The notes under the pieces: generated by a model
What the model saw: only the letters and a program-made list of their open reading frames with translations
What the model was told of the DNA's origin: nothing
Databases searched by the model: none
Shown: positions 43,158 through 58,801 of the stretch, piece by piece
Numbering within the stretch: the first letter of the stretch is position 1
Layout of the letters: each line of letters starts with the position of its first letter
Source of the DNA: Eledone cirrhosa
Lineage: Eukaryota
Length of the DNA stretch: 64,000 nt
Assembly (NCBI GenBank): GCA_964016885.1
Contig: OZ024742.1
Coordinates: 241,986,001-242,050,000, forward strand
Reading direction: 5' to 3'
Program-made: the position numbers and the translations under genes

Positions 43158-43359
43158 GGTACGCTATTCCGGGTTGAATCGGAGGTAACCACAGTATGTA
43201 AGGTACTCAATACATAGCAGAGTATAACAGTTTTAATATAGATGAGATTCTACAGGACTAGAACTGTTTCATTCTTTAGAAATCATCAGGAATCACAGGA
43301 TTCCTGATGATTTGTAAAGAATGAAACAGTTCTAGTCCTGTAGAATCTCATCTATATTA
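43158..43359. mobile_element. Family A element: tail + near-perfect palindrome (43234-43359) with complete HHRs on both strands
   Basis: GATTC-CTGATGA-T TTC taaa GAA T-GAAA-CAG ttctagtc CTG-TA-GAATC on the minus strand (43246-43294) and the plus strand (43299-43347, one stem II mismatch). 4-nt spacer, with (TA)n on both sides. Confidence 0.9.
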
Positions 43360-43569
43360 TATATATATATATATATATATATATATATATATATATATAT
43401 ATATATATATATATATATATATATATATCAAAATGAAAATCCGAAGGCATTTAATAACGACACATGTTTCAATAAGAGATAGATCGCTTGTGAAGCCATG
43501 ATCGATTATCACTGATCTCATCAGGTGAAAATGAATTGTCTTCAAATTCTTGACATCAGGGAGAAAAAT

Positions 43570-43640
43570 AATTGCTTCTACTTTTGGCACAAGGCCAGCA
43601 ATTACCCAATGCATTACTGGTACTTTATTCTATCGACCCC
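43570..43640 (-). mobile_element. SINE 3' fragment
   Basis: cttttggcacaaggccagcaattacccaatgcattactggtactttattctatcgacccc. Confidence 0.75.
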
Positions 43641-43909
43641 GGGGGGGGGGGGGAGAAAAATAATGATGTTCTCTCACAGAATTCATTTCCTCGTATGGCC
43701 TTCGGATTTTCATTTTGAGACTTATAATCAGTTTTACATCATTTAGCTGTTCCCTTGAATGGAATTGGAGATATACAAAATCGTGGGGAACTTAATATTG
43801 CTAACATAGATTTATTGGACCATTTTACACAACCAATAATGAACCTTACTATATAACAACTATATATATATATATGTATGTGTATACCTATGTATGTGTT
43901 TGTATATAA

Positions 43910-44212
43910 GTTCAGCTAGATTCCCGCCGTTCTAATACTGGTGGCTTAGTTCGGATCTAGCTGTCGAAACGGCCGGAGCTCAGACGTCAGGATCCTGAAT
44001 CTTTTCATATACATATATATATATATATATATATATATATATATATATATATATATACACACATACACACACACACATATATATATATATATGTGTGTGT
44101 GTGTGTACATATATGTATATAGATACATACATATACCCACTCTACTACCCTAAGTATTGAGTACTTTGGTGCGTTATGGTCCACCTGGTTCCTTACCACA
44201 TTTCCTTCGTTA
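43910..44212 (+). mobile_element. Family C copy split by a microsatellite
   Basis: cagctagat..ggatctagctgtcGAAACGGCcggagctcaGACGTC, then (TA)/(CA), then the tail at 44136-44212. Confidence 0.7.
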
Positions 44213-44380
44213 CACACAAACATATATATATATATATATATATATAAATATATATATATATATATATATAAATATATATATATATATATATATATATATA
44301 TATATATATATATATATATATATATATATATATATATATATATATATATATATATATATATATATATATATATACATATA

Positions 44381-44873
44381 AAATAAAATAAAATAAAATA
44401 AATATGTCAAATATTTAAAATTTAGCTTCGTTTATTACTGCTATATATATTTCGGTGACAGCCATCTTTGGATGTGTCCTCTTCAGGCAGTCCGAATTAG
44501 TGTGTATAGACAAGTACATATGTTGTTGAGGTGTATAACTTTGTCAATACTCTGATATGCGTAGTTCCAATCTGCATACTGAGGTGTTAGTGTAAGCAAC
44601 TGGGCATATCAGAGTATTGACAAAGTTATACGCCCCAACAACATGTGTACTTGTCTATACCACACTAATTCGGACTGCCTGAAGAGGACACATCCAAAGA
44701 TGGCTGTCACCGAATATATATAGCAGTAATAAACGAAGCTAAATTATAAACATTTGACTTATTTATTTTATTTTATTTTACATTACTCCGGAGTAACCAA
44801 ACCAACCTGCGCACTTCGTCGAGTGCTCCAATCTGCATTCTGAGGTGTTGGTATACAACCAACATATACTCAA
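44381..44873. mobile_element. Family B element: about 185-bp arm palindrome with HHR on both strands + tail
   Basis: ACTGC-CTGAAGA-ggacacatccaaagatggctgtcacc-GAAA-TATATA-TA-GCAGT on minus 44437-44491 and plus 44674-44727 (one A lost), embedded in (TA)n. Confidence 0.9.
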
Positions 44874-45801
44874 TATATATATATATATATATATATATAT
44901 ATATATATATATATATATATACCTGGAAACGGGTAAATTGATGCTCAATACATGTAGTAGAATGTATTTATTATTAATCCATTACAAGCTGACGAGTTTC
45001 TCCATTGCTCTCACGGATATTTCACTTTCAGTGTTCGTTTACCAACCTATATATATGTCTTTCAGTCGATCGCTAGCTCACTCAATCTATCAATTTATCA
45101 ATCAATCTATCACCATATTTCTTTGTTTCGTTCATTTCTCGTTCTTTCTCTCTCTCTCTCTCTCTCTCTCTCTCTCTCTCTCTCTCTCTCTCTCTCTCTC
45201 TCTCTCTCTCTCCTCTCTCTCTCTCATCTTTCTCTCTCTCTCTCTCTCTCTCTCTCTCTCTCTCTCTCTCTCTCTCTCTCTATATATATATATATATATT
45301 ATATATATATATATATATATATATATATATATATATACATATATGTAATTATGTGTACATATAAATATATGTATGTGCGGATACACACACGCAAACACAC
45401 GCGGGCGTGCACGCACGGATACATACATTTATATATATATATATATATATATATATATATATATATATATATATAGAGAGAGAGAGAGAGAGAGAGAGAG
45501 AGAGAGAAGGAGAGAGAGAAAGTGAGAGAGGGGATGCATGAGACCTCGGTATATGAAAATGGATCTAATCTATATATACTAATTCATATTATACGATGTA
45601 AATTCAGTTAACTAGTAGTTTCATAGTTATTGCTCAAAAATGCATGTATTTCTATTATGAGAAGTTGTATGTACGCCTGCCTTGTCTTGGTTAATAATCA
45701 GACATTCAAGACTCGGCATGCAAACGACTTCTGATAATGAAGAAATGTGACATTTTCAACAATATATATGATGATTCTAGTTTTCAAAATGTACAAATAA
45801 T

Positions 45802-56339: not shown

Positions 56340-56760
56340 TTTAAACTTAGGCCTAAGTACAAAAAACGTCTTCCAGAGAAGGAGAGAAAGGAAGCGAGAA
56401 ATAGATATAGAATCAACTCCAGACTGGTATTTTTTTATCAACACCGAACGGATGGAAAGGTAACATTGACCTCGGCCGGATTTGAACTGAGAGAGCAGGA
56501 ACGAATATTGCAAAGCACTCTATCGCAGGCATGTCAAACTGAGCCCCCCCCCCCGGGTCACATATGTGTTGTCTGAGGGCCAGTCACAACAACTAATTGC
56601 GGACATTACAACACATTTTTTATTTTATATTACAAAAATAAAACATACTCACGCTGTAATAAAAACCTTTGTGCGGGCCGCAGGTGTGCTTGTAAAGGGC
56701 CGCATGTTTGACATGCCTGCTCTATCGGACGTTCTAACGACTCTGCCTATGAGCCACCAT
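56340..56760 (-). mobile_element. Older SINE interrupted by a hAT MITE
   Basis: ggatggaaaggtaacattgacctcggccggatttgaact..; the SINE resumes after 56727 (gacgttctaacgactctgcc). Confidence 0.65.
56526..56719. mobile_element. 194-bp hAT (Charlie-like) MITE
   Basis: 14-bp TIR CAGGCATGTCAAAC / GTTTGACATGCCTG, 8-bp TSD ctctatcg (56518-56525 and 56720-56727), and subterminal GGGCCGCA motifs. Confidence 0.92.
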
Positions 56761-58102
56761 GCGTAGAGTATGTTTTTCTCTATTTTTCATTCGCTGCCTG
56801 TATTTTCTAAATAACAACTCTTAAAAAAGTAACTGCATCAAATATATAAAGTTATCTCATGAATTTCTTATAAACATTTTTTTATGAATGTGTATATGCT
56901 GCAAAAGTCATTTTTATTTATTTTTTTTTTTTTTACAGTTTATGTATTCACGATTTTTTATGCAATGAAAAGTATGACAGAAAATAGATATAATTTCTTA
57001 AATATTTAATGATGCGTAAAAGTCTTTAGGATATTATTGACTCAATGTATATTTTTATGATTTTTACTGCACATTATAATTAAGAAAGTATAAATGAAGC
57101 AAATTAAATTATAGCAGTAGGACTCTATCGAATATTCTATTAATTATACCCGCAGTGTTTATTCGTAGCTCTTTCTGCTTCTCATATGGGTTATTTCAGA
57201 ATCTGATACCTTGTAATAATTAAGTTGAGAGAGTTTAGAAACGAAAGTCTGTGAATCAGGATATCCCATCGCCCAATACTAATCTCTTATAATAATCGCT
57301 TACAATCAAGATATTTGATTTATTAAAACCCTTATCCTATTAACAGTTACTCGATCGAAAATAATGAAGCTAATTTACTGTATGAAATAAAACAATATGT
57401 ATATATGGAGAGAGGGAGAGAGAAAACGAGAGAGAAAGTGAGAAGGCGAGAAATAGTACAGAGAGCGAGAGAGGGGGAGAGGGAGAGAGAGAGAGATAGA
57501 TAGATAGATAGAGAGAGAGAGAGAGAGAGAGAGAGAGAGAGAGAGAGAGAGAGAGAGAGAGAGAGAGAGAGAGTGCCTGAGAGAGATATAGAGAGATCGC
57601 CATTATGAAAACAAAAGCAACAAAAAAATACGATCTGTGGAAAGTCAAAAATCACATTTTTCCTCAATTACTTTATTTGATAATTTCTGATTAACTATCT
57701 ACTCCACCATAGCACGAACGCAAACACATATATTATGCCTGTGTATGAATATGTGTATATTTCAGGCACGTGCGTTTTGGTGAATATTTTTCCCACCTTA
57801 TATATCTACAATTCTGATTTCTATATGTGCTTCATTATATTAGCTTCGGAGTTTTTCATCGTAATTATATGTAGGATAATGCAATATATGTTGAGATGGT
57901 TCGGTGATTCTAGCTATTTTGAAAGCTTAATGTGTTTTTTGTTGGTGGAAGGAGTTATTGATACGATGCTTGAATGTTTACTGATACACACACATACACA
58001 CACAAACGCAAAAGACAAAATCAACATTAAAGATCTTTAGCGTATTCAATGAGGCAGATGACAAACACACACGTATATATATATATATATATATATATAT
58101 AT

Positions 58103-58300
58103 ATAGGAAAAAGTATGACCCCGACGGCAGAGCTCAAGCCGTTTCGACGGCTATTTCTGGACTCCAGAAATAGTCGTCGAAACGGCTTGAGCTCTGCCGT
58201 CGGGGTCATACTTTTTCCTATTTCCCACTCTACTACCCTAAGTATTGAGTACTCTGGTGCGTTATGGTCCATCTGGTTCCTTACCACATTTCCTTTGTTA
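58103..58300. mobile_element. Family C element: 59-bp arm palindrome (centre 58162) + tail
   Basis: One mismatch and a 1-nt loop. Each arm carries GAAA-CGGC ttgagctct GCCG-TC-GGGGTC (HHR 3' half). Confidence 0.9.
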
Positions 58301-58395
58301 TATATATATATATATATATATATATATGTGTGTGTGTGTGTGTGTGTGTGTGTGTGTGTGTGTGTGTGTGTGTGTGTGTGTGTGTGTGTGTGTGT

Positions 58396-58541
58396 TATAT
58401 AACAAAGAAAGTGTGGTAAAAAACCAGGTGGACCATAACGCACCAGAGTACACAATACTTAGGGTAGTAGAGTGGTTAATGGGAAAAGAGTCAGGACCCC
58501 AAAACGGCCGGAGCTCAGCCGACGGGGTCCTGACTCTTTTC
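58396..58541. mobile_element. Family C element, opposite orientation, with a short fold-back
   Basis: Reversed tail, then gaaaagagtcaggacccc / ggggtcctgactcttttc around aaaacggccggagctcagccgac. Confidence 0.85.
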
Positions 58542-58569
58542 TATATGTATATATATATATATATATATA

Positions 58570-58801
58570 GTGGTAGAAGACTGGAAGGTAATATCCGTAG
58601 TGGTAGATCACTCAGTCCATGGGACGAGTTAGGTAGAAGTGGTTACACAACAGTTAGTTCACCATACCGAGAACAATTGTTTCACCTTAGCGGATCCTCA
58701 GCTCGTAACGGACATGTCCATGTCCATTACTAGCTGAGGATCCGCTAAGGTAAAACAATTGTCCTCGGTATGGTGAACTAACTGTTGTGTAACCACTTCT
58801 A
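58570..58801. mobile_element. Family D element: tail + palindrome 58634-58801 with HHRs
   Basis: Minus 58668-58705 reads CGAG-CTGAGGA-T CC gctaa GG T-GAAA-CAATTG-TT-CTCG. The plus arm has CTGAGGA..AAAA CAATTG TC CTCG. Confidence 0.85.

Follow-up and report, generated by a model that had tools for sequence, protein, structure and literature searches.

The window analysed here, a 64,000-nucleotide stretch of the Eledone cirrhosa genome, carries a set of short mirror-image insertions. The initial annotation had grouped these into seven families sharing a palindromic layout with a one-sided tail, and self-BLAST after masking of simple repeats recovered all 12 named palindromes, bound to (TA)n, with a tail of 60–100 nt on one side and arm identity of 70–97% (arm ends are BLAST-derived and approximate). 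To judge from the sequence, these stubs (hereafter minis) are clipped ends of Penelope-like element (PLE) retrotransposons that bear a predicted hammerhead ribozyme, either complete or halved: each mini has the anatomy of a PLE pLTR end, i.e., hammerhead and tail, to which an inverted partial copy is attached.

In family A, a tailed arm on the minus strand (43160..43294), with a putative type I hammerhead core at 43289, a 76-nt tail and a predicted cut after CUGUA, matches the 3' end of a Hydra-type PLE. It is followed by an inverted tailless arm on the plus strand (43299..43357, core at 43304), the two forming a palindrome at 43236-43357 with a copy-specific 4-nt junction at 43295-43298. A second A subfamily is represented by a decayed copy at 46515..46707 (minus strand; fold-back 46600-46692, tail 46515-46576) and an old tailed fold-back at 7386..7563 (plus strand; palindrome 7386-7500). 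A longer A-subfamily insertion (L197, 63052..64000, plus strand) starts with an inverted hammerhead arm (63117, minus) and continues into a truncated PLE ORF, its terminal hammerhead and tail lying past the window edge. Both family B fold-backs are on the plus strand, at 44384..44872 (palindrome 44384-44780, cores at 44486 (-) and 44679 (+), tail 44781-44872) and 50581..51054 (palindrome 50581-50961, cores at 50680 (-) and 50862 (+), tail 50963-51054).

The centre of the family C fold-back at 58106..58299 (plus strand; palindrome 58106-58218, tail 58219-58299) falls inside loop II, which leaves this copy with just the 3' half of a U3-A8 hammerhead. Two related copies on the minus strand are a short tailed fold-back at 58401..58541 (palindrome 58483-58541) and an old, C-like one with a tail at 3953..4122 (palindrome 4012-4122), which was confirmed also by cross-matches. 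Family D is represented by the minus-strand element 58571..58801 (fold-back 58634-58801, cores at 58701 (-) and 58734 (+), tail 58571-58633), in which stem III of the hammerhead is palindromic.

Family F includes an old minus-strand fold-back with a decayed U3-A8 core at 29940..30236 (palindrome 30007-30236, tail 29940-30006) and a plus-strand copy without an inverted arm (50126..50328, U3-A8 core at about 50166) that starts at the family hotspot. The asymmetric family H fold-back (49565..49802, plus strand) has a decayed U4C-type core in the inverted arm and only the 3' half in the direct arm; its tail (50017..50112, plus strand) is split from the palindrome by a SINE at 49818-50010. Family G, the 38421 element (38331..38640, minus strand; palindrome 38426-38640), combines a tailed arm with the 3' half only (38479-38331) and a longer inverted arm with a full core at 38548 (+).

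The window also contains, inside (TA)n, a 5'-truncated Neptune-type PLE with RT and GIY-YIG (51585..53500, plus strand) whose terminal hammerhead, at about 53400, is F-like. At 34174..37785 (no strand assigned), a 965-bp inverted repeat surrounds a GIY-YIG fragment (36014-36562, minus strand), with a hammerhead at 37687; this arrangement repeats the layout of the fold-back minis at a larger scale.

Penelope-like parents and (TA)n targets

All seven families run on, in longer genomic copies, into a PLE ORF. The parents are L191 for family A, L237, L229/L315 and L317 for B, L069 for C, L249 and L251 for D, L195 for G and L079 for F, and family H is connected through a sister subfamily joined to the ORF in L355 and L349. 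L191 has a pLTR-ORF-pLTR structure, in which the 5' tail (end 4272) enters the leader of a 712-aa RT and GIY-YIG ORF (ATG at 4318) and the 3' end is the same base as the end of the A minis; family A is the only one in which tail-to-leader continuity was demonstrated. Insertion sizes form a continuum from 100 bp to 9 kb, with head-to-head family A insertions of 1.4–8.2 kb bridging the minis and the full-length copies. This continuity upholds the initial suggestion that the minis are minimal products of TA-targeting PLEs, and we assign them, on the basis of linkage to RT with a C-terminal GIY-YIG, the pLTR hammerhead and the inverted 5'-truncated copy, to truncated EN+ PLEs.

The family A ORF has all the motifs of the Hydra clade (RWK-like, DKT, a CxCX5C linker, CxxC and CxH around E and N, no CCHH), and the linker and endonuclease motifs recur in the B, C, D and G ORFs and in that of the H sister subfamily. 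These motifs point to the Hydra clade for A, B, C, D, G and the H sister subfamily, the likeness to Hydra-1_Obim being judged by eye. In contrast, the F-type ORFs (L079 and the window element at 51585) contain a CX2-5CxxC linker and CCHH in the endonuclease, suggesting a PLE of either the Neptune or the Nematis type. Pfam detected GIY-YIG in the A ORF only below threshold, with no RT match, and a homologue search returned 605 relatives at about 40–50% identity. Family A pLTR units also form ORF-less head-to-tail tandem arrays (L182/L320), and array L185 is likewise retrozyme-like in layout.

The location of the minis in or next to (TA)n, as initially reported, is confirmed by enrichment: in a 760-kb sample, (TA) repeated at least three times lies within 16 nt of 28 of 31 tail ends, compared with 10.6% of random 16-mers, and control SINE ends have (TA) in 19/98 and 12/68 cases, in wider 35-nt windows. 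The insertions thus prefer (TA)n, as do those of the Hydra clade. The (TA)n flanks mask any target-site duplication.

Hammerhead motifs

The minis carry type I hammerhead motifs, recognized by core nucleotides set among predicted stems I–III. The occurrence of hammerheads beyond the window, anticipated in the initial annotation, was borne out by a descriptor that matched 36 times in 760 kb of evenly spaced genomic sequence (3 of the 36, in one AT-rich tandem repeat, are probably spurious), compared with 0, 1 and 0 matches when the sequence was shuffled (three times) and none when it was reversed. The window itself has seven matches. The proposal that each strand carries a core or its 3' half holds insofar as the motifs are present, full or halved, but 43289/43304 is the only place where the descriptor accepts cores on both strands. 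The B copy at 50581 and the D copy have two near-complete cores each, the window C copies only the 3' half and the 38421 element one full core, and the variant cores of F (U3-A8) and H (U4C) are decayed in the window. "Double hammerhead" is true of few copies, and the two cores sit on opposite strands. By core type, A, B, D and G are canonical, C and F are U3-A8, and H is U4C with or without A6U, many individual arms being halved or decayed. Some of these core variants may have been described by Lunse and colleagues in 2017. A search for the H core upstream of the minis gave 0 matches and then 7 chance matches; the core was found inside the element as the U4C variant.

Among 25 hand-picked rows of family A, the stems are 89.8% paired, with 19 two-sided cells against 9.2±2.6; stems II and III are invariant, loop II is variable, and covariation is limited to two stem I pairs, essentially one subfamily split. 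Rfam returned no hammerhead among the matches listed (150 of 263), and its hammerhead models scored an A copy at best at 15.7 and 16.4 bits, below the cut-offs of 75 and 56.3. Of the initial view of a major unannotated ribozyme class, the abundance (roughly 10⁵ copies genome-wide) and the failure of Rfam hammerhead models stand, but the stubs are neither a new element class nor a new ribozyme class.

A transcript of the whole element is predicted to fold into one hairpin (-98.6 kcal/mol), and ribozyme activity within the fold-back appears doubtful; the hammerheads might cleave only in longer read-through RNAs. The 5' ends do not peak at the hammerhead cut site, where only single cases occur (L053, L196), and there is therefore no evidence of cleavage in vivo.

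Centres, arms and origin of the fold-backs

The outer ends of the minis are family-fixed; the centres are clustered yet copy-specific. In A, C and F, the centres cluster at a family-fixed point 29–30 nt behind a TATA box (TATA/initiator at -75/-45 relative to the cut site in A, -102/-72 in F and -70/-41 in C), where direct arms also start most often, and we suggest that this hotspot is the transcription start. Centre hotspots are present in B, D, G and H as well, with no TATA box at -30; if the hotspots are RNA starts, these would lie about -167 from the cut site in B and about -103 in H. Contig depth on L191 (run X1), which is neither copy number nor a readout of transcription starts and comes from a run that is probably not independent of the assembly, shows a ~4-fold step up at 4142 (predicted start 4137) and a ~400-fold drop after the tail. 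In 21 of 26 family A junctions, the base just before the inverted arm is G; 25 of the 26 come from a search whose query contained that junction, so this is at most a hint of a cap signature.

An inverted arm was detected in 122 of 229 tail-bearing copies. The tailless arm extends more than 10 nt further upstream in 38 of the 122, 64 are symmetric and 20 show the reverse; in 17 of the 38, the tailed arm begins within 15 nt of where the tailless arm stops. In L178, L190 and L196, ORF sequence is present in the tailless arm and absent from the tailed arm. The excess of the tailless arm, together with these ORF-bearing arms, suggests that both arms are RNA-templated. The arms of a copy match: at one position in loop II, where two variants are common, the arms read T/T in 16 copies and A/A in 19, with no mixed copy (one was misparsed), and arm differences are 0.24 within copies vs 0.99 between copies, which points to the same template. 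Tailless arms stop at fixed points (+37 in 16 of 22 D copies, +55 in 9 of 13 B copies), suggestive of two start sites, as in the PLE studied in vitro by Frangieh et al. (2024). Pairs in the sample are head-to-head in five cases and tail-to-tail in none.

We consider it probable that the fold-backs arise when two target-primed cDNAs, each begun at one of two internal sites, run off the template RNA at its 5' end and become joined head-to-head. The PLE enzyme would prime the cDNAs on opposite strands of the (TA)n tract, both would probably be extended to the very 5' end of a pLTR-promoter transcript and run off there, and the two ends would likely then be joined. The first 135–320 bases of the RNA would be copied twice, and nothing more, yielding a stub; such double copying would explain how PLEs acquire inverted ends. 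The stubs themselves are likely dead-end by-products of insertion.

Several considerations weigh against run-off. Four families (B, D, G and H) have hotspots with no TATA box; the A hotspot falls where stem I begins and could be a product of stalling at RNA structure; palindromes are unstable, and deletions after insertion could account for the asymmetric copies; gene conversion, or two RNAs from one locus, could give matching arms; and the symmetric copies are also expected from snap-back.

Under the snap-back scheme, which shares the PLE origin, the first cDNA folds and is copied into the second arm, and asymmetric copies are later deletions. A similar self-priming idea is said to go back to Arkhipova and colleagues in 2013. 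The 64 copies symmetric within 10 nt, the invariably matching arms and several centres with 3–5-nt loops or located in hammerhead stems speak for it; we nevertheless regard it as rather unlikely, given the longer tailless arm in 38 minis and in the three long ORF-bearing insertions, the zero-loop and overlapping junctions, and a set chosen on upstream sequence (n=30), in which the ends are tailless in 19 cases, tailed in 10 and other in one.

The initial annotation also considered non-autonomous parasites. On that retrozyme-like reading, the minis themselves would be transcribed, and PLE proteins would re-insert the whole palindrome as one unit. Their abundance and youth would fit (of 1547 candidates, 40 were scored, and all of these are near full length at 96–100%), and the ORF-less A pLTR arrays could supply source RNA in trans. 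However, junctions vary among copies, sizes are continuous up to full length, the A and F minis have no TATA box, and the predicted RNA hairpin buries the hammerhead and the proximal start site; these features speak against self-propagation, which appears highly improbable. That the minis are MITEs or foldback DNA transposons targeting TA repeats, with an incidental hammerhead resemblance, is practically excluded, as the initial annotation had anticipated in calling them RNA-derived: they are short, palindromic and flanked by TA, and DNA transposons with TA targeting are on record, but every family runs into an RT-coding element, the ends are asymmetric and the centres variable where TIRs would be fixed and symmetric, the descriptor matches number 36 vs 0-1, and two stem I pairs show changes that may be compensatory.

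Taking run-off of two cDNAs further, we tentatively propose, as a possibility somewhat short of even, that PLEs in this genome mainly yield "strong-stop" double insertions: with internal initiation so close to the RNA 5' end, cDNA synthesis on either strand would be bound to run off at the cap. PLE inverted ends in general could originate in this way, and ~10⁵ hammerhead-bearing hairpin loci could be the result; in family C, with the TATA box inside hammerhead loop II, promoter-started RNA would be unable to self-cut and read-through RNA would be able to. The young, near-identical stubs, which number in the thousands and have arm ends that can be measured, constitute a natural data set on PLE inverted ends, and the run-off model yields simple tests. 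Pipelines may take these loci, which Rfam scores as miRNA-like hairpins, for MITEs or miRNA hairpins, and they could give rise to double-stranded RNA on a large scale.

Comparison with known systems

In L1 twin priming, two primers at one target copy one RNA and an inverted 5' segment results, as proposed here for PLEs. The L1 inversion is overlap-free and stems from random internal sites, whereas the PLE copies have a fixed second start and arms that usually overlap. In the literature searched, we found no report of fold-back centres held, as in A, C and F, at a family-fixed distance of 29–30 nt from a TATA box that precedes them, of variants common to both arms of PLE fold-backs, or of a tailless arm often extending further upstream than the tailed arm.

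The anatomy of PLE inverted ends, including minimal hammerheads on opposite strands, is already described. Cervera and de la Pena (2014; PMC4209133) report minimal hammerheads of truncated PLEs, mostly solo, with dual motifs 100–700 bp apart on opposite strands, which speaks against the stubs being a new guild. The motifs agree in being type I, with a palindromic or tiny stem III, an unpaired base after A9 and the U3-A8 variant. That survey gives thousands per genome, up to about 9,000, compared with about 10⁵ here under a different descriptor, and its available text does not describe the long loop II forms (C, H), the U4C/A6U core (H) or U-U replacing G10.1-C11.1 (A, D).

Hydra-clade PLEs such as Hydra-1_Obim (Craig et al., 2021; PMC8557442) share, in the portion of that account available, RW[KR], DKT, the CxCX5C linker, CxxC..E, N..CxH and the lack of CCHH, along with the 3' hammerhead, (TA)n preference, inverted 5'-truncated copy and one-end tail. 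The same portion lists few Hydra families, with tails of 30–40 nt, whereas here at least six abundant families have tails of 60–100 nt, family A has a 2-kb microsatellite-like 3' UTR and the dominant product is a 100–500-bp stub; inverted-end formation and microsatellite preference are named there as open questions.

The Poseidon PLE of Anolis in vitro (Frangieh et al., 2024; PMC11167929) likewise initiates internally at two sites bounding the tail, cuts and extends both DNA strands and uses AT-rich targets, and hammerhead cleavage is dispensable for the reaction. Its tail lies inside the ORF, in contrast to the leader position in family A, and the available part of the report does not address inverted junctions and start-site run-off.

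Non-LTR retrozymes, as outlined by Li et al. (2026; 10.64898/2026.07.22.740005), are similarly ORF-less, contain a type I hammerhead and derive from PLE pLTRs. They form head-to-tail tandem units, whereas the minis are dispersed head-to-head insertions; it is the L182/L320 and L185 arrays that match the retrozyme layout.

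Family parents among Penelope-like elements

The short (TA)n-bound fold-back elements (minis) of families A, B, C, D, F, G and H are, almost certainly, ends of Penelope-like elements (PLEs). The family A locus L191, from the same assembly, has a pLTR-ORF-pLTR organization, with a hammerhead, a tail to position 4272, an ATG at 4318 and an ORF encoding RT and GIY-YIG domains. Its distal part runs from a microsatellite-like 3' UTR through a hammerhead and tail into (TA)n, and the tail stops at the final base of the minis, indicating that, in this family, the element provides no template for the TA repeat beyond its tail. 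Parents joined to a PLE ORF were also identified for families B (L237, L229/L315 and L317), C (L069), D (L249 and L251), F (L079) and G (L195), and for a sister subfamily of H (~80% alike; L355 and its neighbour L349). The window itself contains a PLE with an F-like hammerhead motif (51585-53500, 78% alike to F) and a minus-strand PLE ORF fragment with RT and GIY-YIG (156-1442). Hydra-clade motifs are present in the A, B, C, D, G and H-sister ORFs, and Neptune-type zinc fingers in that of family F.

Queried with the complete A element, the assembly yielded 1547 candidates; the 40 that were scored were near full length at 96-100%, and all 30 retrieved loci sit in TA repeats. Repeating the search with the tail alone removed the bias of the whole-element query: among 26 parsed copies, 16 have an inverted arm and six reach more than 100 nt upstream, with variable centres. 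A query with the upstream sequence of these copies gave 1135 candidates, including head-to-head pairs 1.4-8.2 kb apart, and led to L191. Given these long copies and the continuity with parents, the minis mark the lower extreme of an unbroken range of sizes. The PLE link drawn in the initial annotation is correct for each family (for H, via the sister subfamily), and what was proposed there as a separate guild comes down to additional members of an already described kind.

Several related arrangements were observed. The family A parent 3' UTR includes ~2.2 kb of TA/TG microsatellite-like sequence (L191:6640-8850), common to long copies; family A thereby spreads microsatellites, which may serve as its own targets. 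Loci L182 and L320 (G000:C1:83.68-83.70 Mb) comprise ~13 head-to-tail units of ~1075 bp made up of the family A pLTR and lying downstream of a PLE ORF. This array is retrozyme-like and could be a source of short RNAs. A 310-bp hammerhead-bearing tandem array with an internal inversion is nested inside an A element (L185:3376-8963). In family H, a common SINE lies between palindrome and tail, at the same AT-rich spot, in the window (49818-50010), L279 (twice), L283, L290 and L304; these are independent loci with a short duplication, and the spot is a possible SINE insertion hotspot.

Hammerheads, palindromes and abundance

The window, at G000:C3:241,986,001-242,050,000, is AT-rich, with microsatellites throughout; its SINEs we take, from their appearance, to be octopod-like, and 16474-27648 holds three or four decayed copies, presumably of a LINE family, that are arranged in tandem and have RT and restriction-enzyme-like endonuclease motifs. 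Self-BLAST with masking recovered the palindromes of A (7394, 43234, 46600), B (44381, 50581), C (4012, also found by other comparisons; 58103, 58483), D (58634), F (30009), G (38421) and H (49563). The arms do read as type I hammerheads, but the label 'double hammerhead' is too strong: within the window, cores on both strands pass the descriptor at 43289/43304 only, and the family C copies are hammerhead halves. By hand and descriptor, the core is canonical in A, B, D and G, U3-A8 covariant in F and C, and U4C, a weak natural variant, in H, one subfamily of which additionally has A6U. In 25 family A rows, hand-chosen from the retrieved list and the window, 89.8% of stem cells are paired and two stem I pairs covary, mostly through one subfamily split. 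No single RNA can carry both cores of a fold-back in sense orientation, and transcripts through the whole A and D elements are predicted to fold into single hairpins (-98.6 and -159.1 kcal/mol).

Further hammerhead-bearing families, absent from the initial annotation, occur in the window at 2757-3122, 3256 and 46285, 13003, 37687 and 40093. In the family C hammerhead, loop II is 60 nt long and holds a TATA-like box (L069:4884-4977; L257:1206-1301), with a truncation hotspot 29 nt downstream, still within the loop. Contig joints of read set X1 jump back 75-77 nt at L191:4123-4201, suggesting that tiny tandem repeats of the A hammerhead alone exist somewhere in the genome.

In 76 evenly spaced 10-kb stretches of the 3.0-Gb assembly, 36 descriptor motifs were found versus 0, 1 and 0 in shuffles; pairs within 700 bp were head-to-head in five cases and tail-to-tail in none. 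Within these 0.76 Mb, the seven families together have 31 copies with a tail, and 33 of the hammerheads are credible, which gives about 40 per Mb or roughly 1.2-1.3e5 genome-wide, from a sample unweighted for chromosome length and with small per-family counts. Of 31 tail ends (unbiased cases), 28 are TA-bound, compared to 10.6% at random. The sample also holds at least five additional hammerhead kinds and 77 short-range palindromes, 50 adjoining (TA)n and many outside all seven families.

Arm ends and fold-back formation

Each family has fixed outer ends: one coincides with the end of the tail, and the other, that of the tailless arm, falls 60-100 nt short of it (D, +37 in 16/22; B, +55 in 9/13; A, +14 or +27). 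The inner ends are clustered, with a narrow family-specific zone holding the starts of 72 of 229 direct arms and of 60 of 122 inverted arms, A copies selected on palindrome or upstream sequence being omitted. Families A, F and C have a TATA box 29-30 nt ahead of this zone and an initiator-like motif at the zone itself; no TATA box was found at equivalent spacing in B, D, G and H. Contig depth along L191 (X1), which is not copy number, rises at the zone from 350,521 to 1,477,939 and falls beyond the tail from 729,980 to 1,880. Together with the location of the Penelope promoter in the pLTR, these features point to run-off at the RNA 5' end.

We consider it fairly probable that two cDNAs, target-primed from the respective internal start sites, would both run off the RNA 5' end and be joined head-to-head. 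Full elements, solo pLTRs and arrays such as L182/L320 could each supply the source RNA, so mobilization may occur in trans. At a site with two alternative states, the arms agree in all 35 parsed copies, even though the query was biased towards mixed ones; this implies a shared template molecule, a shared locus of origin or gene conversion. Palindromic head-to-head PLE junctions have been attributed to self-priming (Arkhipova et al., 2013), and the first cDNA could have folded and been copied on itself. However, the tailless arm extends further upstream than the tailed arm in 38 of 122 copies, 17 of these nearly without overlap, and three long insertions have ORF sequence on the tailless arm alone; snap-back of a tailed cDNA cannot produce longer tailless arms without later deletion. 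Re-mobilization of the palindromes themselves is unlikely; the junction, 0-7 bases, differs in each copy, so the fold-back forms anew every time.

Comparison with known systems

The main text of a 2026 octopus repeat annotation contains neither ribozyme nor palindrome as a term, and, outside subscription papers, Repbase and Dfam, we found no paper that connects the inverted junction with the start site or with a double priming on a single RNA. The worth of the minis lies in the read-out of mechanism and in scale. Their components are known: PLE hammerheads, with opposite-strand pairs 100-700 bp apart, U3-A8 and low activity (Cervera and de la Pena, 2014, PMC4209133), inverted truncated copies with a one-sided tail and (TA)n bias (Craig et al., 2021, PMC8557442), and retrozymes derived from pLTRs (Li et al., 2026, 10.64898/2026.07.22.740005). 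Further papers drawn on are PMC3846280, PMC2377424, PMC6765202, PMC3088659 and PMC13282606. B, D, F, G and H have a palindromic stem III, as do the dimer-type hammerheads described by Cervera and de la Pena, and Craig et al. list a Hydra family from octopus that prefers (TA)n and carries a hammerhead at its 3' end. In the Anolis PLE in vitro, RT starts at two internal sites and both DNA strands are cut and extended (Frangieh et al., 2024, PMC11167929); the two fixed outer ends of the minis match both of these start sites.
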